Assembly: GCA_036172245.1 (NCBI GenBank)
Contig: JAYWIR010000003.1
Span: 1,240,001-1,304,000 of the forward strand
Length of the DNA stretch: 64,000 bases
Source: Raillietiella orientalis
Lineage: Eukaryota
Direction: 5' to 3'
The translations under genes and the position numbers were made by a program. Positions 1 to 62,690 of the stretch are shown in pieces. The notes beneath the pieces were generated by a model that had not been told where the DNA came from, searched no databases, and saw only the letters and a list, made by a program, of their open reading frames with translations. Each line of letters starts with the position of its first letter. Position 1 is the first letter of the stretch.

Positions 1-908
1 GATGACTAGGTACACTATCAAATATCTTTAATTAACATACTTTACCATCCTAACAGATTATGTCTTGTGTGGAATGTAGCCTTGTTATCTAATTTATCAT
101 GTGATTTTCAGGACTAGTCATGACAGACAGGAATATTGGTGAATTGAGATTGTGGATAGGTTTAATTCATAATATACTTACAGTCTTCATTCTGTTTTTT
201 GTAATTCTGTGTATAGAGTCGAAAGCCTGTGGAAGATCTTTGACTTTACCATTTGGTTAAACATTTTGTTATACATGTCAATAAAATTAATGGATTTGGT
301 TAAAAAACAATGGCCTCTTTCATTGATAAGTTTAATTAATACCGGGTTTATGTGGAAAAGCAGAGTTATATTTGAGTCTCGTTTTGACTGTTATGGTGGT
401 GCAGTATTCAATTAGTTTTTGTTAGAGCCAAAAACATGAAACCATAATGTTTTCATGGATTCATGATCCCTGGGTTTGGTTTTCATACGCTGGGATGCTG
501 TTTATTCGTATTCCCGAATCAAATTTTGCTTTACAGATGTGTATTATAAAACACAATCTTAATGAGCTGTTACATGTGGAGTGCACATGTAACCATTTTA
601 ACATTATTTTACTTTAGAAATGGGAATGTGGTATTATTTTCTACAATAAAAAATATTTTGATATTTTCATGCAGATAAGGTACAGTTTTGAAAAGCAGTT
701 GAAGTTCTGAAAGAGGTGTTTTTTTCATGAGCTGTCATATAGTATTCTAATTTAGCTTTCTGGATGTCGTTTTGGGTTTTTATTGAGTTTTCGTCAGGGG
801 ATTATTGAGTATAAAAATGTGGTTTTAAAACATAAGTCATTCATAAATATAATTTTAAGATTTTTTTTTTTTTTTTTTTAGATTCTGATTACTTTTATTT
901 TGTTGCAG

Positions 909-1235
909 AATCTTCAGATGCTGAGTCCGGTTTATCTGCTGTGCAGAACTCTGATGATGATGATGCTGTAAGAAGTAATGATGCAGATTCTTCTTCTGAT
1001 GCTTCTGATGTACCAGTTGGAAATGTTCAGAATGGTGGAAATCACTTGCAATCAGAGGAAGATTCTGATGTGGGCAGCTATGAGGAAGAAGATAGCGTGA
1101 ATCATGATGAAAGTCACCGTTTCAAGCAGTCACTAAAGCAGGAAGAAGAAGAATATGAAAATGAAGGTGGACAGAGTGAAGAAGAGTATTATGATGATGA
1201 TGAGGAAAAAAAGCAATCTTCTGATGAGCAGCAAG
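909..1235 (+). CDS. LEO1: LEO1 internal exon (acidic low-complexity N-terminal region); upstream exon(s) not located
   Basis: Acceptor ttgcag|AA at 908/909 (alternative in-frame acceptor at 881/882); donor G|gtacgt at 1235/1236; D/E/S-rich frame continuous with the Leo1-domain exon. Confidence 0.75.
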
Positions 1236-1283
1236 GTACGTTAAAATATATTTTTGTCTTTTGTTCATGGAAGTCATTTGCAG

Positions 1284-1394
1284 ATGATTCTTCTAGTGAA
1301 GAAGATACAAATAGTAAGCGAAAACGAATTGAGCTTAGCATAGGAAGTGGAAGTGATATGGAAACCAAGAAAGTCAGGGTGCAGGAAGATGAAA
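1284..1394 (+). CDS. LEO1: LEO1 exon
   Basis: tttgcag| acceptor at 1283; A|gtattt donor at 1394/1395; phase-1 junctions keep the frame on both sides. Confidence 0.75.
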
Positions 1395-1444
1395 GTATTT
1401 TTTGAAGTTTTCTGTTTTTTTCTGATTACAATGATTTGTGTTAG

Positions 1445-2344
1445 CATCTAGATCACCACTGGGATCTTTTGATGAAGGTGCTGACATGTCCTCTGATGGT
1501 GAAAAACATATGCAACAAAATAATGAAGATCAAGATGCTGCCTCAGAACCAAGAGAAGATGGAGAAGTTGATGAGGATGAGGATGCACTTCCTGAAACAC
1601 GGATCGAAGTAGATATTCCGCGTTTGATTACAGATTTGGGTCGTGAAATCCATTTTGTGAAACTTCCTAATTTTCTGTCCGTCGACCCTCGACCTTTTGA
1701 TCCAGACACTTATGAAGATGAGATTGATGACGAAGAAACTTTGGACGAAGAAGGTCGTGCTCGACTTAAACTTAAAGTTGGAAATACGCTTCGTTGGCGA
1801 TCTGTTTTAAGTGATGATGGGCATTTTACTCATCAAAGCAACGCGCATTTAGTGCGCTGGTCCGATGGCAGCATGTCTTTGTTGCTGGGTAGTGAGGCAT
1901 TTGATGTATGCAAACAGCCTTTGCAAGGAGATCATAATCACTTATTTCTGCGCCAAGGAACAGGACTTCAGGGACAAGCTGTGTTCCGAACCAAATTGAG
2001 TTTTCGTCCTCACAGTACCGAATCACTGACACATCGCAAGATGACTCTTTCTTTAGCCGATCGTAGTCAGAAAAAACAGAAAGTAAAACTCTTGACACAA
2101 GTCTCTAATGATCCAGAGGCACATCGTGGTGAAATGATCAAACGTGAAGAAGATCGATTGCGTGCCTCGCTGCGTAGAGAAAGCAGGCAGCGACGCATTC
2201 GAGATCGCTTGTCAAGCGGTCGTGCTGGTCTTACGGCAAGCTATCTCGAGCCAGATCGAGATATTGATGATTCTGATGATGAAGGTGCAATTTCCTTGGC
2301 AGCTATCAAAAACCGTTATAAAAAAGGAGTGGGTTTGGAACGAG
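1445..2344 (+). CDS. LEO1: LEO1 exon encoding the Leo1 domain (RNA polymerase-associated protein LEO1, Paf1 complex)
   Basis: [17 protein letters not shown]...[20 protein letters not shown]...[15 protein letters not shown]...[42 protein letters not shown] matches metazoan LEO1; ttag| acceptor at 1444, G|gtatgt donor at 2344/2345. Confidence 0.96.
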
Positions 2345-2392
2345 GTATGTACGTTCTGAGCACGTGAAGAGATTATGTTCATCATTCCTTAG

Positions 2393-6300: not shown

Positions 6301-7787
6301 AGAAAGGGATGAGAGAAATCAGATGTGTCGTCTTACCGTGATCCGGTGAGGCGATCGCGCCAGAAGGAGAGGAAGGAGAAAGAGGAGAAAAAAAATGGAC
6401 GCCCGAAGCCGAGAGGGTCGTCGCTCCAAAAATATGAAAGGCACATCCTCTTCCGGGAAAGCAAACAGGGGATCCTAACTGGGGACCATGCATCCCAGGG
6501 ACTGCATGCTCCTTCTCCCCTGTCCTGGGTCATCATCGGCCCTCCTCCTCGCCTGGTGTCGGCGGATCGCCGTCGCTCTTGCTCTCTCCGCCGGGCGCGG
6601 GCGAGGGGGGGGGGGACGATCGAGCGCCGGTGGGATGGCGTGCGCGTGGCTTCCAGCAGAGTGGAACCAGCGGAATGAAGCGGGAAGGGGAGAGGGGCGG
6701 AAAACTCTCAGCAACGGCCCCCCGACGAGCTCCAGCCACTCTTATGATTGTCGGCGAAAAGGAGGGGGGGAAGAAGGAAGGTGTGGCGTTTCGTCCTCCC
6801 GCGTCTTTTCGAGGTTCCTAAGAGGCAGCGGGAAGATTTGCAAGCATTGGGTTTTACCTTCATGCTCTCAGCCCGATGCGGAGCCGAAGACAGCGGCCGG
6901 AGTCTGCAGCCAGTCACCAGGGCGGCAGGAGGAAGAAGCAGAGCTCGGGAGAGGGTCCCCTCTCTCCGTTTATATACGTGAGGATTCAGAAGGTCGGGTT
7001 ATTCGATTTGAGAGGGGATGAGGGGATCGTCATGCATATGAAAGAGGCGCCGCCGCGATGGCTGCTGAGACTCTGGGACTTCACCCTCCCTCCTTGCGGC
7101 GGGATGCGCGGCACGTCACCAACGCGGCCCAGAAGCTCTTCCATACGGTAATCCAATGTCCAGTCGGCATTAGCACCCAGAGCCGGTGCTTCGCGGAAGG
7201 GAAGGATTCGCCGCTGCTTTGGGAACGGCCAGACGGGGAGGCGCGGCCTTCAAGAAATCCGCCTCGTGTCCGCTTCCTAATGGGAAAATGGAAGAAGATG
7301 TAGATTACGAATCGCATCTTCCCATTAGAACGAGATCTTTGATGTAGCTGCGGACGCAATTGGTGCTGGACATGGGCAGCTTGATGTGTGATGATTGTTT
7401 TTTGTTTTACCGAAGGGAAGCTTCGCCGAATCTCCGCTTCGTCTCAAACGCCAGCACGCCCTCCTTCCCTCCCCCGCTCCCCCCTCTCCTCCAAAGAGAG
7501 CGCATGCACCCCACCTCCTCCAACGCACTCCTCCTCGACGCGCGTTCAGAAGTCCTCTCTCCTGATGCCCTGCACCACGATGGTCAAATCGCACGACCCG
7601 TCAGAGGAACTCGCAATCTTCCTTCGACGGAACTCCTCGCATCTTGCTCTCCTCCCTTCCGGATGAGTTCTTCCGATCTTGGTACAGCGTCCAGACCCCA
7701 AGCGCAGCTGAGGAAGCCGACCTGGAGTGCTGAGAACGAGAATCCTACGGACACCACGAGTAAACGTTGGTTCGTTTCGTTTCCGCG

Positions 7788-8295
7788 AGGTGACAGCCGC
7801 GTGGTTGCAGCGGTCTCCGCGCGCAGCACCAAGAGTTGCGAGTTCGAGTCCCACCGGGAGGAAGGGGGGAGGGGATCGACGCCGGAAAATGAAGGGCGCG
7901 TTGTGGGGACACGAGTCCACCCCATTCCCGCATGATTACTCTGTTCGGCCTGTCGGCTTCGGGATGTTCCCGAAGAGTGCTTGGGATTGGAAGTTGACCT
8001 CCCAGGGTCCTCCCAGGAATCGAAGAGACCCTTTTACCCTCGGGTGTACTCTCCATCGCGTACCATGGGACTGGCTGACACCTCCTCCACAGTATCAGAA
8101 GCGCTCTGCTGCCTTCAAGGAGAGCGCTGCAGAGGAATCGAGAAGCGTCCCTTCGGAGTTCTCTTCAGAGGAGTTGAGACAGGGAGTGCTTCCCTTGCGG
8201 GTTCCTCTGGGGGAAGAAACGAGGGGAGGTTCGGGGAAACGGGGGTTCCTCCGGAGAAAATAAGGGAGAAGTTCCCTTAGGAGACAGCAATAGTC
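7788..8295 (+). mobile_element. tRNA-headed SINE-like element, 5' part (interrupted by a LINE)
   Basis: A-box-like AGCCGCGTGG and B-box GAGTTCGAGTCC at ~7797-7851; body (gaagcgtcccttcggagttctcttcagagg...cccttgcgggttcc) aligns to the copies at 15410, 21215 and 35296. Confidence 0.65.
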
Positions 8296-8301
8296 CCTCC
8301 C

Positions 8302-10795
8302 TTGCTGCAGCACCGACTTCCCTGAAGGAGGCGAATGACAGCAGTCAAACGGCGAGGTGGGAAATCTCCCGCCAAATCGTAGGCAGGAGGAAGGGGATGA
8401 GTGGATGGACCACGGAGCAGCTGGCAGATACTGCGATCCCAAGTGCCCTTCCATGAGGGCTGCAACGCTGGTGCGAGCGGCTCGGCATTCTTAGCGAAGA
8501 CCTGGAGTGATCCTTTGTGCTCAAGAACAGCAGCTCCCTGAAGTGGCAGAGGTCCGCACTTCTGATGCTCAAACTGGGATCTTCTTTGCGACGCATGCCG
8601 ACACAACTGGACTCTGGGGAGGGAGAGCTTGGAATGTCGTAGGTGCGGAGAACGGGAATCCCCCCTCCCAAACCTGCTCGTGGACTGCATTGTCCTTCGG
8701 TCCCTGTGGAAACGTCTCAGAACGACCTTCCGAATCCCGGTTGGCGTCCCCCGGGACGTTTCACGGCTCCTCTTTGTGCGGGACACCCTGCAGCCAGCCT
8801 CAGCCCCAGCAGCGCATTGCTGCATCCGCGAGATTGCGGCGGTCTGGAGCGAAACCGACGGAGGAGGAAACGAGAGGGACGTCGTCCAGTTCGCAGTGCG
8901 CTTTCTGCGGATGGCGGTCAGTTGGCCTCACATGGGATCTATTCGGACGGACCTAGCTGGCATCCTGGGAAGGACGCAGACGCGTCCCAGTGGACAGTGG
9001 TCAACCATAACCTCTCAAACATATTGATTTATTCTTTTATTTTCTTTTTGTGTTTGTTTTCCACTGTCTTCCTTCGCTGCCGAGGTGACCCCCGCCGGTC
9101 TGAGTACCAGTGACCCGGCGGCTCCGTGGACAAACGAAGTGTGGCAGAACCACGTGCCCTACCACAACATGTGCCACCTTTGCACGCAGCAGAGGACTGC
9201 TAGAGACGCAGCGGGGCGCAGGCCGTCACGCAGAAAGAGGCGACGGTAAATTTCCTTAGGGTCGCCTACTGGAAGATGGAGGATTGGGGCGATTCGACTC
9301 CAGAGTCCATCCAGGGCGACACACTCGAGAGTGAGATGCGGGAAGGTTTCTCTTTCTCCGCACTCGACACAGCGGGCATCCACATTCCCCAGTGTCCAGT
9401 GAGACAGGCGTGCTCTGCTTAACAGTCCCCAGTGCAGAAATAGCAACGCCGTCTTCTGCCACTTCAACGGAAGTGTGCCGCAATCCCAACACGCTGGGGG
9501 CCACTTCACCTCCTCCGGAGGTATTGCGAGCAGCTCTCCCCAGCGCGAAAGTCCGTGAGGCGGGATGCTCGGGGTGGCAGCGTCCGTGAGCTCCCGAGTC
9601 GCCCACGCCTTTAAAGGTTTTTTCCTGCCTCGGATGAGGCAGGACACTTCCCACGATGCCCGATCGTTGCTGCTCCTAGTGTTTTTTAGGGAGGACAGAA
9701 CGGGGGCAAGGGGGCTGAAAGAAGCCCACAGAAACTCCCGGGGCGTGTTGATAATCTCCTGCAGCGGCTGTCGAGCGTACGGTCCTCGTCGTAGGCAGTT
9801 GTATTCCTCCTCGCTCGTGCCGTTGATCTTAGCCCACGCGGAAGCTGACTCCTGAAGCCAGGCAGTGCAGTTCGCGGGGAGGCAGGAGATCCAGGTATTC
9901 TCCCTCATCAGGGCGACCATCTGGCGCAAATCGGGGCCACAGTTGGAGAGGCTGCGCTGGTAGGCCACGAGGATCGAGGACAATCCTTCGCAGCCGGTCG
10001 CTCTTCTGGCGAGGAGCCGTGCCGGATCGCACCATGGCGTCATCCATAAGCTAGCCGCAAGGGCTAACTTTCGAAGTGTTGTTTGTAGTTGGATGCGCTC
10101 CAACGTAAGGAGGCCCAAGCCACCATCCCTGCGTGGAGCGCACAAGTCTTTCAATCGGACTCGCGACCTCGCTGTGCCCCAAAGGGCAGTCCTCAAGAGG
10201 GCTTTGGTCCGTCTCTGTATGATGGGAGGGGCGGGGCAAACAAAAAGTAAGGGGCGAAGGAGGGGGGCCGCGAACGCGTTCCACACCGCGGCCCGCTCCT
10301 GCAAGTAAAACTTGTGCAAAGGTGGCACGCCAGAAGAAGAGGCCCAAGATGCAGGGACGCCATCCACTGGACGACGATCTCTTTAGAGACGGCGACAAGG
10401 TGGCGTCTACCTTTCACAATAAAAACCGAACTTGACTGCATCCTCAACAGGATGCGGAGGACCGACCCAGGCGCCCAGTGATCCCTTCCCTGCCCCACCC
10501 CCTCTCCTCATATAACTGTTTTCCTCCCCGTTATCTCTCTTTTTGTTTGTTTTTGTTCTAGTTTTCCCTTCCCATGCGCCTCGGGAATGGACCTAACCGG
10601 TCTATGCACCGGCAACCGACACGTCAAGCAAGGTGGGAGAACCCAGTGTTTCCCCACAGAAAACATCTTTTTAAAGACTTTATTATCTAATTTTTGTAAA
10701 AAATTAGAATAATAAATGCCCCGGCATATCCGGGTGACAAACCACAACATGTGAGTTTCCTTTGAATTTTAAGAAACGTCCCGGCGTGTCCAGTC
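8302..10795 (+). mobile_element. L1/Tx1-like LINE 3' copy, host of the nested inverted insertion 9174-10740
   Basis: zf-RVT-like CRRCGERESPLPNLLVDCIVLRSLW; colinear with the copy at 45480-46392, including the 3'UTR that resumes at 10754 (gagtttcctttgaattttaagaaacg). Confidence 0.8.
9174..10740. mobile_element. 5'-inverted (twin-primed) L1/Tx1-clade LINE insertion; ORF2 thumb plus zf-RVT C-terminus, stop-free
   Basis: 13-bp TSD ACCACAACATGTG (9161-9173 and 10741-10753). 10313->9171 on - encodes ...ALWGTARSRVRLKDLCAPRRDGGLGLL...CVECGERETFPHLTLEC...CCVQRWH; 10314->10481 on + continues VQRWHARRRGPRCRDAIHW...DPGAQ*. Confidence 0.92.
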
Positions 10796-10990
10796 TCCCT
10801 CCCAAGTGTAAGAGGAGTGGACCCCTTCCTCCGGAGTATTGCTGGATTCATGGGGTGGTCTCTGCTGGGGTATCCCCTAGCATGAGAAGTCACATGCACC
10901 CTCAGGTGACGTGGACAATGCTAAAGACCTTCATGAGCCCTCCTAAGGAGGTTCTTCAGTTCTTGGCAAACCAAAAGAAAAAACGAAAAC
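10796..10990 (+). mobile_element. tRNA-headed SINE-like element, 3' part with A-rich tail
   Basis: taagaggagtggacccc...ggattcatggggtggtc matches the 3' portion of the copies at 35960-36169 and 62610-62670; picks up close to where 7788-8295 stops. Confidence 0.6.
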
Positions 10991-13174
10991 CTGAAAGAAA
11001 AAAAAAAAAAAAACAGCTGGAAGGAAAGCAGCGAAAACAGAAGAATTCCCAAAGGGATTCCCACCATCCTAGGCCAACAGCAACGATCTCCCCGTGAAGT
11101 CGCTACTGGCCCTTAAAAAAAAAAAAAAAAAATGGTCCTCGTTGGCGTGTGGTGCAAAGCACGGACAGACGCGGGCTTGTCACAAGGACGCAGAAGCAAC
11201 AGCGGCAACCCGATCCGAAACTCTGAGGCTGCTAGATGAGGGTAGGGATCGGATCAGGAAGCCGATGCTGAGAAGCTGCAATCCTCGTGCGTCCTGAAGC
11301 TTCGAGCGCCTTCCTTCAGTTTCATCGAAGATCGTTGTGACATCTGCTTTTCTCCTGCTCAGCACGAACTTGTCTTGCACTTTCGGTGGTTCTTGCGCTC
11401 TACCTTTAAGGTGCCTTTCCGTACGAATGATTTCTGCTCGCTCTTTGGTTTCACGGCCGCCGCTCTCGGCAAGTGTCAGGGGTTGTCGATCCCTCATCAA
11501 GATGGCAGCTCGGGGTTGAGATTTCCTGGAGTTCTTGAAACTGGATGCACTGCGATACCTTCGGGGGGTTCCATCTTCATCGATCTTGCTCAGAAGCGGT
11601 TGCTAGGATCCAGCCCTCGTTGCCTTCGACAAGACCGGAATGCGTTCCGAAGCGACTGCTGCGTCGGGAAGACTGGTGCTGTGGTTTCCTGCCGCCTCCT
11701 CCGGATTGTTCCAGTGGCAAGGGTAGTCAGGGGTCCGACTCTTCAAATGAGCTATTGAGATCTGACCAGAATCCACCTGGTTACCACTAGCTCTTTTAGA
11801 TTCGAGATACTCGGAATAACCCCTCTTGATCCTTCGATTCATAAGAGCCGTTGACCTTGATCTTTGGACTGTAGATTACTAGGCAGTGGCTTTGTAAATG
11901 ACTTGTTTCAGATTTCAGAGTGCTAAAGAAGAGGACATGAAAACAGATGAAGGCAGAGATTCCACAACCTATCTCTTCTCTTCCATTTGTGCTGTAATTT
12001 TCGGAGTTTCTCATATTACAGGAGTATTCCTGGATGTTTCAGAGAGGAGAGAAGAATTTATCAACGCCGCTACAGAAAGCAAGGAGAGCAGAAAGAGAGA
12101 AAGATGAGGATAATCGCAAGGTAGGAGAATCGTCTTCAATAGATCAGTTAGAAGCCAGACGAGGCTTACAGAAAGGCACGACGAGCTGGTGGCCCGGGTC
12201 AGAAGTGTCATCCTGAAATTCTGGGAGTTGTCCATTCAGCACACAAAGATCGGAAACCGAGGTCCGATATGGTGCTCCAGGGCGAATGAATGGTAGTCAT
12301 ACCCGACGTCGCTTGCCCTTGCGAGTATTCGTCTGCGTCACTGGGAGATGTAAGATCGAAGAGAGAGAGCTAGTAGCGGGGATTGGCTTCCCGATTCACC
12401 TGGGATCCGGCAAACGGTGAACTGCTGAGGGTACTGGAAAGTTCCAAGAATCAGGTGGGGCACATCGGAAAGGGGGCGGTGCACTGGAACATGCAGCATT
12501 TCCACGACGGGTGCTGGGAACAACGGATGGACCAACTCCCGCACTGAAAGGACATTCGGATGTCAAAGAAGGGGTTGAAGAAAGATGGTGCAAAGATGAT
12601 TCTCCCTCCTTCATCTTTTTCTAACCCTTCCTTGACAACGTCCCGTGTGCCTGAATGCCAACAAGAAAGGTCAGGTCATTTCAGGCACACTGAGTTCACC
12701 AAGTGACTCCTTTTTTTGGATCTCGATTACAAGATCAATGCAGGATAATTTAGGGCAAAGGGGTTCGGATCACTGCCCTAAATGTCGTCGTTGCTATCCT
12801 CGTCCATGTGCTCATCGTTGAGGGAGGTAGTCAAACATCCTACGCACGGCGGAGGGCAACGCACTCCAAAAGTAGGCGCAGCAAGGTTTCCTTTTCGCTG
12901 CTCCTGTCACACTCTGGGGTCACACTTTCCCCTGGTCCAGCGATAAAGGCGTAGATTGCGCGGGGAGGTTGCGCGCAGCAGGATTTTGTAACTTGGACAA
13001 GAGTCGTCTTCTCCTCTGTGAAGCCAATTCTATTGTCTGGGCAAAATCTCCTGCTCTTCTGTGCTCGAATTCGCTGAAGAAGATGCAAAGGGAGGGGGGG
13101 GGGGGACGGAGCACGCAGACCAAGATACCTGCCTGAATGGTTGCAGGGAAAAAAAAAAAAGGATGCTTGAAAGC

Positions 13175-19402: not shown

Positions 19403-20143
19403 AAGGCACAGTGCATCTGCCTACGAAACAGCAGATACACTCGTCAGTCGTTGAGGGAGATACTGGGTAACACCAGGAATCTGCTTTGGGAGTCGTTCAC
19501 CCCTCTTTCCCCACCTGCTCCCATGGGAAAGGAAGAGACAGAAACCTTCCGGCAAACTGGGATGTGACGTGAACTATCGAAAATAGAAGAAAACACCTAA
19601 ATGCCTGGATAACTCGGGATCTGACAGATGCTGCCACTCCGAATGTCCAGAGGGCAACCCCAGAAATTTCCTGAAGCGCCTCTTCCAGCGCGACGCCTTC
19701 ACGCTGGCCGCATCCCTAGCAGCACTTTTCTGCCCATGCGGCGGGACCGTGGCTGCATGGAGCAACTCCAGAGGAGGCCAGGACGACAGGGATGCCATCC
19801 ACTTTGCCGTCCTCTCCATGAGGATGGCTTCAAGATGGCTTCATCTGGGGACCTTTAAACAGGAACTTGCCGGGCATCCTTACAAGGATGCAGAGGACGC
19901 CCAGCATCCGGTGATCCCTTCCCAAACCCTCCCAATTTTTTTTGTGTATGTATTTTTTTGTTTTATTTTTGTTTGCCCCTCGCTCCCCCTTTCTGCTGCC
20001 GAGGCGAACCTTGCCAGCCTCAGTGCCGGTACTCGGCAGGTTGCCATGGTTACATTTGTAACGTGGCAGGACCAAGCGTCCTGCTGCTGACCTGTATGTT
20101 TATTTTTTATATAAACAAACGTCCCGGAGTAACCAGGTGTCAA
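19403..20143 (+). mobile_element. 5'-truncated, internally deleted L1/Tx1-like LINE
   Basis: TSD CCAGGAGGCTTG (19391-19402 and 20145-20156). YTRQSLREILGNTRNLLWESF...AWITRDLTDAATPNV joins directly to the PRNFLKRLFQRD region; 3' half nearly identical to 48820-49300. Confidence 0.85.
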
Positions 20144-23549: not shown

Positions 23550-24925
23550 GATCACCACGGTCCCTTCCCTCCTATTGAACCCTGCTGCACTTCCGAGAGC
23601 GCAGGTGGACTCTACCTGGCCCCTAGGGGCGGCACTCTCCTTGAGGATGGTTCACCTACAGACTGCCCAGTTGTTTCCCATCCGGATTTGCCAGAGGGTC
23701 CATCATATAAAATGGAAAATTTACAGGTTGTGGTAGGACCCTCGGTCTTACAACGTACAGGATATACAAAAGTTGCCGAGCAGTCGGTACGCAGACCACG
23801 ACGTGGCAGCGAAAGGGAGGCAAAGAAAAAAAAAATTTTTTTTGGAGTGAGGAGTGAGGGAGAGATTCAGAAAGAGTTCATTGCTCTCCCCTGGACTCCC
23901 TCTAAATCCTATCCTAGATACCGGCAAGCTGGTTGCGGATGTTGCCAAGGTGACACCATTTCGTGGCGGTCTTGGAGAACACTCCCGACCAGTGGATGGT
24001 GTCCCTTTCATTATCCCGGCCTCTTCTTTCTACGTTCCAGGCCGCCACGCGAAGAGAGAGCAGAAATGGCGATGCACCCGCAAGATGAGAGGCATTCCGC
24101 GAGCGAAATCGCGAGGAACAGAAAACAGTTGGGATGCTGGACGTCGCGCGTCAACTGGCTGACGCGCGTATCCCCGCCGCCCTCCCCAGAGGGATTCTTC
24201 GAGAAGGGGAGCTTCTAAAGATTCTCTCCTCAAGAAGTAGGAATCTTCCCAGCGTTTGCGGACAGCTCCGCACTTCCTCTGGAATGACAAGGCTCTGGGC
24301 ATTGCAGATCCCATGCAACGCGCCAGTCCATTTCAGGACGAGGGGGAGAGCGACCTCAGAATGTGCAGGGTGCGGGAAACGGTAAACCTTCCTGCAACTG
24401 TTGCTAGATCGTATTGCCCTCCGAACTGTGTCCGGGATCGCTCCGCTGCGACCCTCTCCACTCCCAGTGGGCAATGCCGGAGAGGTCTTGCCGGAGGTTC
24501 CTCTTCACACGAGACTCGACGTCGCCTGCAGCTTCCCTTGCAGCCTCGGACTGCCTCCGTGGGATTGCGGCGTCGAGGAGCTGCGTCGAAATACACCATT
24601 CGAACGGAGGGATCATCGCAATCGTCTGCTCCTTCATGAAGAAGGTGACAAGATGACCGTATCCTTGCCAACAAAAGGAGAAATTTTCCCCAATCCCCCA
24701 GAGGATGCTGAAGACGCCAGGAAGAAATCTGTGATGCCTTCTCTTCCTTCCCCAACACATTTGAAGGTAGGGTTTGTGTGTGTGTGCGTGCGTGGTTTCT
24801 GTTTGTTTATCTTTCCCTTACTTCTCCTGTGCGGACCTCATCATGGCGCTGCTTCTCGTGAGTCTCCGAGGGCTCTCCCTTCGTAGTGATGCCGTGAAGT
24901 CACCACGAAAGAAGATATCTTGTTA
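23550..24925 (+). mobile_element. Degenerate L1/Tx1-like LINE 3' copy
   Basis: Frameshifted zf region (RMCRVRETVNL) and 3'UTR colinear with 47600-48140. Confidence 0.7.
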
Positions 24926-24934
24926 GATGATAAA

Positions 24935-25300
24935 GCGGTGACCGGGCGAGAATCCCACCAAGACAGCAGAGAACTGCGAGGGCGGCGGCAGTGCGGCACT
25001 CACGAAGAGGCGTTTCAAAATGTTCCTGAGGCCGCTCACCAGCATTCCAAGAATCGTCGCTAGGCGATCCAAAAGGGGTCGGAGGACAACACAGTCAAGG
25101 AGCAGGTGCGCGAGGGTCTCGCTTTCCCCCTTTGCCTGTCGCACCCCGCGTCCGCACGCCCCTTTGACCAGTGACGAAGGCGTGCTTTGCACGAGACTCC
25201 CCAATGCAATACCAGCAGCGCCGGTGGGAGGGTGCAGTTGCTCCAGTACGCTGGGAGATCACTTCAGGTCCTCCACCGGAGGAGCAGCTCTCCTCAACGT
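24935..25300 (-). mobile_element. L1/Tx1-like LINE fragment
   Basis: GESETLAHLLLDCVVLRPLLDRLATILG...RNILKRLFVSAALPPP. Confidence 0.75.
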
Positions 25301-25928
25301 ATGATTTCTGTAGGTTCGGCTTCCCGACCTTTCGGCTAAGATTAAAGTGGGGTCCTGTGGATGGGACGCTCGGGACTGCGGCGTGCTGTCCACGCACCCG
25401 GAAGTTTCTTTTTTTCCTGAGATGCAGCAGATCACTTCCCATTTTGCTGCTCAGTTGCAGGGCTTGTACTGTTGCCTTAACACTCTCCAGCACTTGTCGC
25501 TCCGTATTCCCCGGCGATTTCTCATCGATTCCTCAATTTAAACGATCTCTGTCCAGTTCGCGGGAGAGAGAAGGCCGGGAGGCTGGCCGCAAGGCCACGT
25601 GAATTCCTCGAAAGCAGCCAAATAAGTGGATATAAAAACCCTTGAAATCGTGATCGCGGAGCAACAAAAGGAAAAGCGGGTCAGATCTGTTCTTATTCTA
25701 CAAATCTTTTCGCTTCCTATTCGAGACAGCGCACTGAATCCGCAAGAGACCTGACGCAGCCCGCGGGCGAGGCGAGAGAGGGGTCTTCCAATTCCTGCTC
25801 TCCAGCTTTGCACTGGGGCAGCTGCTCTCCCGCGGAGTTTTGATTCTGGGGGCATTGCAGCACAGGGTCCACCCCGCGACAGAAGAGGAGCAAACCCAGA
25901 TCCCGTCCACCTCCAAGAAGTAGTTTAA

Positions 25929-45479: not shown

Positions 45480-46392
45480 AGTGGGAGGAGCACACCCCCC
45501 TTCCGTGTTACTGCGGCGCTACCCTCTCTGAGGGAGGCGAATGGCAGCAGCCAACCGACGAGCTGAGAAGCCTCCTGCGAGATCGCAGGCAGGGGGAAGT
45601 AGATGAGTGGATGGACCATGGGGCAGCTGGAAGATACTGCGACCCCAATTGCCCTTCCTTGAGGACTTGCCAGCTGGGGACAGCTGCGCGGTATCCTTAA
45701 GGAAGAGCTAAAGTGCTCCCGGTGCTCGCAGGCGGCAGCGCTCTCCTCTTGAAGCGGCAGGAGTCGGCATTTCCGCTGTTGCACCGGGGTCTTCCCTGCA
45801 ACTCCCGCCGACACCGCTGAAAGCTGGTGAGTGCGAGCTCGGACTGCCACAGGTGAGAGGAACGGGAATCCTTCACGCATCTGCTTGTGCTGTCTTCCAT
45901 CCTCGATGGGAACTTTTGAGAACGAGCTGCAAGCCCTGGTTGGCACCCCCAGAGACCTTGTAAAATTCCTCTTCACACGGGATGCCCTGCAGCATCCTCA
46001 GCAGATCTTCGCTGCATCCGTGGGCTCGTGGCAGCCTGGAGCGACGCTCAAGGAGCATTGAACGAGAGGGACGCCATCGGGTGGACACTTTGCTTTCTGC
46101 GGATAGAGGCCAGATGACCCCAGCTGTGTGCAATCCGGACCGACCTAGTTCTCTGAATCGTTTCCAGGATGCAGAGGACGCTCTCCAGAGGACAGTGCAT
46201 CCTTCTTGGCTCTCCACAGTGTTTTTATTTATTTTTCTTCTGTTTCCCTCTCCCCTTGCTGCTGAGGTGGATCGCCCTGGTCAGCGATCCGGCAGTTCTA
46301 CAGGTAAATCGAGCGTGGTATGACCGCGAGTGCCCTACCACAATTTGTGAGTTTCCTTTGAATTTTAAGAAACGCCTCGGCGTGTCTGGCAA
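45480..46392 (+). mobile_element. L1/Tx1-like LINE 3' copy with an uninterrupted 3'UTR (reference for the empty target site)
   Basis: Colinear with 8302-9173 plus 10754-10795; GC-rich upstream 43250-45480 may be its decayed 5' part. Confidence 0.8.
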
Positions 46393-54289: not shown

Positions 54290-55020
54290 CGACAAAGCAA
54301 ATGTCGCCAGCTCCAGCTGCTTCAAGCGCTGTCCACGCCACCCCCGAGAATGAGTGTAACTCTTCAAGTTAGAGGGCAGCTCCATTGAGGGACCGCCCTA
54401 TAAACCCAGGTAGGTTTCGGAGGAAGGAGTCCTTTTCTCGTACGCTTGGGAGGGAACCTCGAAGGAACCTCCTTCTTATTCTCTCCAGAGGGGTCACCGA
54501 AGGTCATTTCTCCTCCGGAGGGAACCCGGAAAAGATCTGCTCCTGGGATTTCTTCTCAGCAGGGAACCCGCCGAGGAACCGCTCCTGGTTCCCTCCTCTA
54601 AAGATAACCTCGAAGAAACGCTTCCCAGTTCCTCTGAAAAGTCGCACCAGAGCGAGCACTTGGTACTCTGGAAAGGCCAGCTCCAGATCAACCAGCTCCA
54701 TGATACCCGATAGAGGGTCGCCCTCCGAGGGAAGGGTCGGTTCCATTTGCACAACCGGAGGGAGCCCCGAAGGACTCCTTGATGCCTTGGAAGGACCCCG
54801 GAGGGTCAACTTCCAACCTCGGCCAGTCAACGGAGGCATCCGGTTTTTGCCAGTGCCGTCCCCGAACCCTGTGGGCCAACCAGCGCCATCCTGCTGGGAA
54901 GACTCCAAGCCCAGAACTCACTCCTCGTTCTCGCCGTCGATCCTCCACGTGGAGATTCGGACCCGCAACGCTTGGTGCCTCGTGCCACACGACCGCCAGC
55001 TTAGGCATGGCCTTGACATG
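54290..55020 (-). mobile_element. tRNA-headed SINE-like element, diverged
   Basis: Head ...caccaagcgttgcgggtccgaatctcc; 3' motif cctgggtttatagggcggtccc. Confidence 0.65.
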
Positions 55021-60004: not shown

Positions 60005-62519
60005 ATCGGTTTTACAAGAAATTTTGGGGTCAAATGATTTCTGTCCCACAAGAAGAAGGAAGGAGAGACAGAAAATCAGGCGAAAGGCCGCAGCATAATG
60101 TTTTACTTGGCAGGGGAAAATCTATTTTTCCACTTTTTTACTCGTTTATCTCCGTGAAACCACGCAAATTAGAGCAGACCATCACAAGTCGTTAGGTCTT
60201 TGCACAGATTATTTCTTCAGTGGATCGTCAGCTGCATTCTGTATAAGGAAGAAGTGTAAGGAATGAGGTCATTATGGTTTGTTGCTTGCAAGAGAAGATG
60301 TTAATTAAAGAGATCTGAAGTTTTACTCTGGAAATGCACCGTCTTCAGCAAGCAGGACATCTGATCTCGCTTTACCGGGGTGTTGACTCGATTTACGCCT
60401 ACGCACACAAAGGCAAAGTGAAAACTTATTTTATCCACAATTGATGCAGCAGTTGCGGATTCTGAGATGTGCACAATGAACTCATTATCTGTTTTCTGGA
60501 ACTCGCAAGGACTAGCCGAAATTTTCAGCTGGCAAACAAAGGGGGATGCTATTAACTGAGTGGTCGAGCCGGCTTGGAAACGCAAATCTATCAACGAAAT
60601 CTCGTTGAGATGAAAAACGTCGCTAAGGAAACAGCATGATCTCTGAATCGTTAGTGAGACGATGTATCCCGTAACGAGCCTTGCCATGAACGCACATCAG
60701 TCTGAAGTCGCTTCTGAGGGTGGAGAAAATAAAGGATGCTGAATTTCCTCCGTAGCTGGGTCTTAACGTATTTGTCTACGCATGGCTGTTTTCCATAATG
60801 GACCAAGGGATGACTGTTATGGGGTATAGCTTTTCTCGACATTAGGAAGGCCAGGGTCTGTTTCGGTATCTCCCAGCGGACCAATCCTTGCTTTCTGTTC
60901 TCAGAAGCGTCCTTGTTATCAGCAGCTGAAGGAATCTTTATTTAGAGCTTAGACTTCCGGAAATTCCGATCCGTAGCCTCCTATGATAACGACACAGAAT
61001 CTTTCCTTATATTCGTGGCGAGGCATCCAACGATTTATCTCGGAAATCTTCGAAATTGGTCACAGCTTGATGAGTCATCGCTCCAGGCTCACAGTGAACT
61101 TTCCTAAAAAAAGTCATCATAGAACGACAGGATCGGCGATAGTGGTTCAGAGCGAGGGTTGGCTTCTCCTTTGTCCACGAAATGCCAGATAGTGGCCCTT
61201 GTGCCACGAGAAGGCAGCCTCCAAGCACGGAATGAGCTCGTCGCAAGCGAAGAGGGGTCCCTCGCTCCCACGATCTTCCAAAAACCAAAGGGCAATCAAT
61301 TCTGCTTCCTGGAGTTTGCCTGGCCCATCGGGGGGAGGGGGTCGAAACGACTCGTTCCTTTTTTGGGAGAGCTCGTTTCCATGCTCTTGCTCCTGTTCAC
61401 GCGCCCGCCCGCTACCCGACGAATGAGCTCGAAGAAGTCCTCGGGTCCAGAGGCCGGTGCGGAAATGGGCAACAGGAGAAGCAAGTCCACGGCCGGGGTG
61501 CCCGGGCAGGAGCTTTCGCAAGTCAGCCAGGGTCAGCTTGTACTCAGCACCAACTCGAAGATTCTGAAGAGCAGAGGGCTGAAGCTGTTGTCCTGCCTGA
61601 TGCCTCTGCGCCAGAAGTTGTCCTCCCTGCTGAGGTGTTCAGCGCGCCGGAAGCTGCCTGCGGACGCTCCGCTGGATGCTGCTCGCCGTAGGCGGCCCGG
61701 GTCGCGAGTAAGTGCTTGAGGTCGCGCCTGAAACGGAGACGCAGGCGGCAAGCGGGCGGTGAGGCTGGCCGGGCGGGAGGGGCGCGTCGCTCCCGGAGGT
61801 GGGGTGCGCTGCTAATTCGCATCCCGCTTCCTCTTCCTCTCTGTTCAGCTGGGAAAGCTTCGTGTCGTCCCCCGCTCGGCCGTCCGCCGGCAGGCGGCGC
61901 GCGGTAATCGAGCGGCGCCGGCGCCAGCTGTTCTACGGCGCCGTCCGTGCCTTGCATGCGAAACCTCCCTCGAGCGTCTTGCTCTTTCAGCCTCTGTCTG
62001 ACGCCACCAAAGACCTTCCTCGTGACGAGCTTTCGGGGCATTTCCCAAATGCACGCTGTTGCACACTGCTGCACCGCTGCTCCCAGGCGCCATCCTACAA
62101 TTCCTTTCCAGCTTTCATGGAGACGTTTCGGAAACGCCGCTGCCGAGTTCCTTTTCCCCACGATAACGGGACCTCGGTGGAAAAGTGGATGGCACGCCGT
62201 CCGTCGTCACTGGTGCCTCGAAGCAGCGCCGACTTCCCCGCTTTTGCAAATGGAATGCATCCTTTACGTTACGGCCAGCGATGGAAGCCCTTCGATCCCG
62301 GTGCTGGCTTCTTTTATGGAAGCAGAGCTCCCGCAAAAGAATAGCAAAGAAGGTTCGTAAAAGTGGCTGTAAATCATGGTGTGTCGATGCGTTGTCTTCC
62401 AGCTACCAACTGCTTCGTCATTTACGGCGACAACGAGACGGGGATTCATTCTTTCCCCGAACCTCTCCCCAAAGCGTTTTCTTTCCCTAATGCGATTCCT
62501 CGGCGTCTGTGAGGCATTC

Positions 62520-62690
62520 GGTGATCCCCTCCGGGGTTCTTCTCGGAGAAGGGAACAGGAACGGTTCCCTTGGGAGAGACCACCAGGACGAGGGTTCCTT
62601 CCCGAGAGTAAGAGGAACGGACTCCTTTCCACCGGAGCCTTCCCGGATTCACAGGGTGGTCCCTATGGTATCACCCCTAACTTGAAGCGT
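62520..62690 (+). mobile_element. SINE-like element, 3' fragment
   Basis: gaggaacggactcc...cttcccggattcacagggtggtccc matches the family 3' region. Confidence 0.55.

Follow-up and report, generated by a model that had tools for sequence, protein, structure and literature searches.

A 64-kb stretch of the Raillietiella orientalis assembly (contig JAYWIR010000003.1, positions 1,240,001 to 1,304,000 of the forward strand; hereafter the window) carries a copy of a long interspersed nuclear element (LINE), here called F, whose 5′ part lies in the opposite orientation to its 3′ part. The best reading of this locus, and in our judgement a probable one, is twin priming at the time of insertion. As far as the anatomy can be read from the letters, it supports this reading without any extra assumption, and every structural hallmark that we checked was found. 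All coordinates are positions in the window, and A, C-right, D and E denote other LINEs within it. The features of the insert and its target are as follows.

8277–9160, plus strand: host LINE A, C-terminus of open reading frame 2 (ORF2; its end at 8277–8997, with a protein 36–42% identical to that of F) and first part of the 3′ untranslated region (UTR)
9161–9173, plus strand: left copy of the target-site duplication (TSD), 13 bp; its last 3 nt (9171–9173) double as the first 3 nt of the 15-mer in the inverted arm
9171–9185, minus strand: 15-mer closing the inverted arm on its outer side, beside the TSD; proposed internal priming site
9174–10313, minus strand: inverted arm, 1140 bp, 380 stop-free codons; the part of ORF2 after the reverse transcriptase (RT) domain, with GGLG and Cys-rich zf-RVT regions
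10314–10328, plus strand: the same 15-mer, opening the direct arm; here the two arms overlap in element coordinates
10314–10740, plus strand: direct arm, 427 bp, with the last 55 codons of ORF2, a 259-nt 3′ UTR and the 3′ end of the element
10661–10740, plus strand: 3′-terminal 80 nt of F, with AATAAA at 10711–10716, a GC stem-loop at 10720–10734 and predicted hairpins
10741–10753, plus strand: right TSD copy, 13 bp, an exact match to the left copy
10754–10795, plus strand: host LINE A, final part of the 3′ UTR after the insert, a right flank that matches the sister copy
46334–46348, plus strand: paralogous unbroken target in the sister copy of LINE A; single occurrence of the motif, bordered on its two sides by the counterparts of the left and right flanks
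23723–23737, minus strand: second paralogous unbroken target, in the 3′ UTR of another LINE, with the motif uninterrupted

The TSD sequence, ACCACAACATGTG, agrees at 13/13 positions between 9161–9173 and 10741–10753, and these are its only two matches in the window at up to one mismatch, against a chance expectation of 0.05 and with at least two matches in 0/100 shuffles. It bounds an insert of 1567 bp (9174–10740; 1140 bp inverted plus 427 bp direct), exactly the arrangement that an earlier sequence-only reading of the window had described (1.14 kb inverted and 0.43 kb direct within a 13-bp TSD). The 15-mer that this reading had placed once in each arm, where the inverted one ends and the direct one starts, with its last 3 nt overlapping the TSD, was likewise found: GTGCAAAGGTGGCAC occurs twice and nowhere else in the window, even when two mismatches are allowed (expected 0.04), and the pair is 100% complementary in a repeat search. 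Direct comparison between the arms is limited to these 15 shared nt, of which 12 nt are unambiguous overlap and 3 nt (9171–9173) are common with the TSD, forming a microhomology at the 5′ junction.

When the inverted arm is reverse-complemented and joined to the direct arm, with the 12-nt overlap counted once, the resulting 1555 nt hold one 431-codon open frame running from the first base to a TGA that ends at 10481 (the ORF2 stop codon of F, 10479–10481, in the direct arm), and the other five frames contain 7–20 stops; joining the arms thereby confirmed the stop-free ORF2 C-terminus that had been predicted on un-inverting. As for the motifs named in that prediction, GGLG is present in the translation of the inverted arm, and zf-RVT is recovered only as a weak match (26.9 bits, E 7.7e-6), below the 27.5 bits that Pfam sets as its cut-off. 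The 3′ end of the element occurs in the direct arm alone; the inverted arm terminates within ORF2 and is therefore not a separate insertion primed at the 3′ end of an RNA. A repeat search of the window showed no flanking repeats belonging to either arm on its own; a single TSD encloses both.

Judged by sequence comparison, the insertion lies in the 3′ UTR of a LINE that is older than F and related to it. The left flank (8319–8956) is ~70% identical to 45525–46148, and the right flank (10741–10790) is 92% identical to 46337–46386. Since the target is intact in the 3′ UTRs of two paralogous LINEs of the window, the two arms arrived together as a single unit, and these unbroken targets join the structural hallmarks in support of the twin-priming interpretation that the earlier reading had offered. 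A 15-nt motif at the target, CCTACCACAAYNTGT, is conserved among three diverged LINE copies (9158–9172, 23723–23737 on the minus strand, and 46334–46348), in whose 3′ UTRs it sits ~50–60 nt upstream of the LINE 3′ ends. It has four matches in the window compared with 0.54 expected, one of them being the right TSD copy with 2 mismatches, and one of the three 3′ UTR copies is occupied by an insert. We also considered the 13-mer as the conserved 3′ end of the family (11/18 nt before each copy also agree) and rejected this: the paralogues run through the motif straight into the right flank, so the 13-mer is a true TSD. Just past the 3′ end of LINE A, 10796–10863 is a repeat 75–78% identical to 62596–62664 and to 54388–54455 (minus strand).

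In the series of events that we propose, one RNA of F, a tail-less LINE of the L1 superfamily, would have been copied into the 3′ UTR of the older LINE, with target priming from both nicked strands. A nick in the bottom strand, on the left border of the 13-nt target, would have freed an end that primed cDNA synthesis at the 3′ end of the RNA, giving the direct arm; this cDNA would have stopped at the first base of the 15-mer, 12–15 nt past the internal priming site, leaving the 15-mer shared by both arms. The top strand would have been nicked 13 nt downstream, where its GTG end, the last three letters of the TSD, could pair with CAC, the final three bases of the 15-mer of the RNA, and its extension would have yielded an antisense copy of the 1140 nt upstream, the inverted arm. 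The two cDNAs would then have been joined at 10313/10314 with at most ~1 nt of microhomology, the product being TSD, inverted arm, direct arm and TSD, with 12–15 nt of the RNA present in both arms. The nick positions and the order of the arms are read from the sequence, and from there we infer the annealing, the priming and the joining of the cDNAs at 10313/10314.

The model itself goes back to Ostertag & Kazazian 2001 and is taken here from its descriptions in PMC2912911, PMC4245944 and PMC12016303 (these and the papers below are cited from excerpts of their text). Like the 5′-inverted L1 insertions of human, chimpanzee and mouse, F has a single TSD in the 10–20-bp range around the whole insert, whose 5′ arm is inverted and whose 3′ arm is direct and includes the 3′ end. 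An association of 5′ inversions with TSDs of 10–20 bp is reported in PMC4245944, and the median TSD of human 5′-inverted L1s is 13 bp (PMC12016303). As in those insertions, the arms of F are adjacent with a short overlap, 12–15 nt compared with a human median of 12 bp (quartiles 4–17; PMC12016303). The 3-nt microhomology at its 5′ junction falls within the 2–5 bp seen in ~70% of human 5′-inverted L1s, among which such microhomology is absent in just 28/605 (PMC2912911).

Unlike the mammalian 5′-inverted L1s, F resides in a non-mammalian host, in which an exon of the gene LEO1 is nearest to arthropods, and its target is the 3′ UTR of another LINE. Also unlike mammalian L1, it ends in a stem-loop, and it has neither the poly(A) tail nor the T-rich/AA nick site of the mammalian type: there is no A-run at its 3′ end (10740), and the target is not T-rich. 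The last 80 nt are predicted to fold with a minimum free energy of −18.2 kcal/mol (z −3.66), which 1/200 shuffles equalled. An Rfam search of 7000–13000 returned no family.

A comparable case is a single 5′-inverted insert of zebrafish Nimb-2_DR in chicken DT40 cells (PMC4245944), which likewise stems from a LINE other than mammalian L1, one whose TSDs are typically ~12 bp. Unlike F, a natural germline copy, that insert was obtained experimentally, belongs to a different LINE group and arose in a cultured vertebrate cell; it is the one non-L1 inversion, from cell culture, reported in the excerpts of that paper. The same source concludes that whether 5′ inversions arise depends on LINE and host alike. 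In the excerpts of PMC2718515 and PMC6007223, the term twin priming appears only in the reference lists. Judged by titles and abstracts, in a search with subscription journals outside its scope, nearly all of the twin-priming papers among those listed concern mammalian L1. The present locus is a clean example of a known mechanism, and what is new is the LINE lineage and the host.

Twin priming is documented almost only for mammalian L1, and a natural case that shares the human L1 values for TSD, overlap and microhomology suggests a general ability of this group of RTs for second-strand internal priming, exercised without a poly(A) tail or mammalian host factors. The earlier reading had stated outright that the family uses second-strand internal priming; one locus now speaks for this, and the generality is weaker than was claimed. 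The genome offers an independent lineage in which the frequency of 5′ inversions and the rules of their breakpoints could be measured.

Further copies of the family were sought in one public sequencing run, X1, whose contigs were compared with the window; they cover the element and hardly cover the flanks. The element is matched by 36 contigs, 3 of them at least 99% alike, 7 at 95–99% and 26 at 90–95%. One contig of 205 letters matches 9182–9309 on the minus strand with 0 differences over 128 letters and then continues on the plus strand at ~10312, which is what a co-linear, uninverted copy of the family would give. Its joint is reported as 9182 to 10312 and not to 10318, the position of a simple join, and no letters fit both sides; most likely this copy has six extra in-frame letters at an indel-prone spot. 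Six contigs among those listed run from the inverted arm past 10311/10314 into a common sequence that the window does not contain (2 and 4 contigs at the two positions, with agreement of 0.98 and 0.89), and the family therefore extends beyond the inner breakpoint of this copy.

At the other end of the element, three X1 contigs among those listed leave the window at ~10742 into unlike flanks, marking the 3′ end of the family (~10740–10742); the dissimilarity of these flanks (agreement 0.59, n=3) argues, from few contigs, against one fixed target. The inverted joint 10313/10314 occurs in none of the X1 contigs listed, which exclude 20 further loose ends, and the sparse cover of the flanks is evidence neither for nor against the junctions of the locus. 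Summed contig depth in the bin 10226–10332 reaches 48.8, compared with 4–19 over most of the remaining element, and this part may be common to more subfamilies. Several X1 contigs start matching only at 10227 or 10233.

Several observations weigh against twin priming here. The evidence comes from a single locus, for which no empty allele is known, and no read or contig crosses 9173/9174, 10313/10314 or 10740/10741, leaving the assembly without independent confirmation at these points. The joint of the two-arm X1 contig is six places off the simple co-linear join. Almost no 5′ inversions are reported outside human L1 in human cells (excerpts of PMC4245944), and this makes such events less likely a priori in other LINEs and hosts. 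Finally, in an alignment of the LINE copies of the window (A2), the D sequence (from 24951, minus strand) departs from the rest of the family in the same column in which the direct arm of F begins, a coincidence that random internal priming does not predict. At this breakpoint F is short of 10–13 aligned columns (~3–4 codons) relative to five other copies in A2. The coincidence between D and F was noticed post hoc among roughly ten LINE joints and may be due to chance. The D breakpoint lies within the following feature.

23680–25456: LINE nest, with E (plus strand) at ~24108–24950, D (minus strand) from 24951, and C-right (minus strand) at ~23680–24048 on the 5′ side of E

The region at 23.7–25.5 kb was considered as a second inversion at the same ORF2 position and rejected as such, E and C-right each having its own 3′ end, as in a nest. 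Between them, 59 nt at 24049–24107 gave scores in the shuffle range for 4/6 references, and the other two placed them contradictorily, so that they are assignable to neither neighbour.

An explanation that we regard as unlikely is that the front part of the element was broken and flipped, either after an ordinary 5′-truncated insertion or during integration, through a 12–15-nt staggered cut followed by re-ligation in reverse. A staggered cut, possibly by a LINE endonuclease, with subsequent fill-in would also place the 15-mer at both flipped ends, the overlap has the length of a TSD, and the coincidence with the D breakpoint hints at a preferred cut site. The resemblance between overlap and TSD lengths has been raised for human L1 too, where it is noted without explanation in the excerpts of PMC12016303; the same study found no endonuclease motif at human L1 inversion breakpoints. 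A later inversion would moreover need a second break at the boundary between element and TSD, to within 3 nt; the 3-nt microhomology at this boundary is what internal priming predicts, and a single coincidence, noticed after the fact, is all that speaks for a preferred site. A specific form of the idea, to which we assign a low probability, would make the arm overlap the footprint of a staggered LINE-endonuclease cut at a preferred ORF2 site, the one where E splits D. If this were true, 5′ inversions in these LINEs would come from a nascent copy that was cleaved and re-joined, and the similarity of overlap and TSD lengths in human L1 (PMC12016303) would acquire a mechanistic reason.

It is similarly improbable that the locus is the retrocopy of a rearranged master, that is, of an F copy with an antisense F insert at the ORF2 site, whose read-through RNA was 5′-truncated inside the antisense part. 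What speaks for it in the window is that the 3′ end of E (24950) abuts D where D leaves the family alignment, in the column of the F direct-arm start. Such a history works only if the 5′ truncation, by chance, hit the 15-mer that also holds the split in the host element, a coincidence for which no mechanism is offered, and the 7 X1 contigs among those listed that reach the breakpoint (6 loose ends and 1 joint) are all uninverted, although rare forms could be missed. An assembly artefact, in which a 1.1-kb repeat segment was wrongly oriented, is very unlikely: the region is repeat-rich and its junctions lack independent read support, but a misassembly would not yield an exact TSD overlapping a duplicated 15-mer, nor arms that are in frame.

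Two independent insertions of opposite orientation side by side can be excluded in practice, even though LINE-in-LINE nests are common in the window, since no 3′ end is present in the inverted arm, private flanking repeats are missing from both arms, a single TSD surrounds the pair, and in element coordinates the arms connect in frame to within 15 nt. Like nested antisense LINE-in-LINE insertions, F shows related LINE sequence head to head, with one breakpoint at the break of another LINE; unlike them, it has an antisense part without a 3′ end, a single TSD and one continuous reading frame.

Returning to the twin-primed element, we placed its family through relatives of the 380-residue inverted-arm protein, which was compared with 1.84 billion representative proteins in an exhaustive HMMER search; only four relatives were found, all of them proteins without a name. 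The nearest, P0001, is 57% identical over arm residues 1–188, corresponding to P0001 residues 424–612, directly after its RVT_1 domain. Two distant relatives with the full architecture, P0002 and P0003, combine Exo_endo_phos, RVT_1 and zf-RVT, and the zf-RVT region of the inverted arm aligns with theirs. Among solved structures, P0001 is best matched by human L1 ORF2p (E 7e-40), with R2 proteins at E 7e-17, and its full-length relatives, among the matches listed, are at most 31% identical, most having APE and RT and often also zf-RVT.

This copy of F is 5′-truncated and has neither RT nor endonuclease domains, and its relatives P0001–P0003 would, by proxy, make the family a member of the L1 superfamily, which comprises the L1 and Tx1 clades. 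The L1/Tx1 assignment of the earlier reading thus stands at superfamily level only, and the source names of the listed P0001 relatives give no hint of a clade. The 380-residue arm gave no match to solved structures at E up to 1, nor any in a homologue search set to longer proteins; among metagenome contigs, 120 stretches matched the search pattern and none is a relative of the element.

The insert is clearly younger than the host LINE A, by comparison with the ~70% identity between A and its sister copy. The description of F as young and recent accordingly holds in a relative sense, without an absolute date, on the grounds of the identical TSDs, the identical 15-mers of the overlap and the open 431-codon frame. 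With 4.3% of substitutions creating a stop, such a frame would stay open with p=0.33 at 2%, 0.06 at 5% and 0.004 at 10% neutral divergence.

The host was assessed through a neighbouring gene.

836–2367, plus strand: exons of the LEO1 (PAF1-complex) gene, including a 309-residue exon

The 309-residue exon has its top identities, 69–72%, with ticks, a millipede, a bug and cladocerans, compared with 64–69% for vertebrates, and two Logan records are likewise at 70–72%. These identities fit an arthropod host, in keeping with the non-mammalian origin that had been proposed for the element.

Two further LINE pieces lie in the window. An RT fragment at 61383–61610 (minus strand) is 58% identical to P0001 residues 282–364 and is the sole other piece of the window that matches the P0001 RT domain. 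At 19418–19868 (plus strand), a LINE ORF2 C-terminal copy has an internal deletion that joins query residues 173–250 directly to 348–416.

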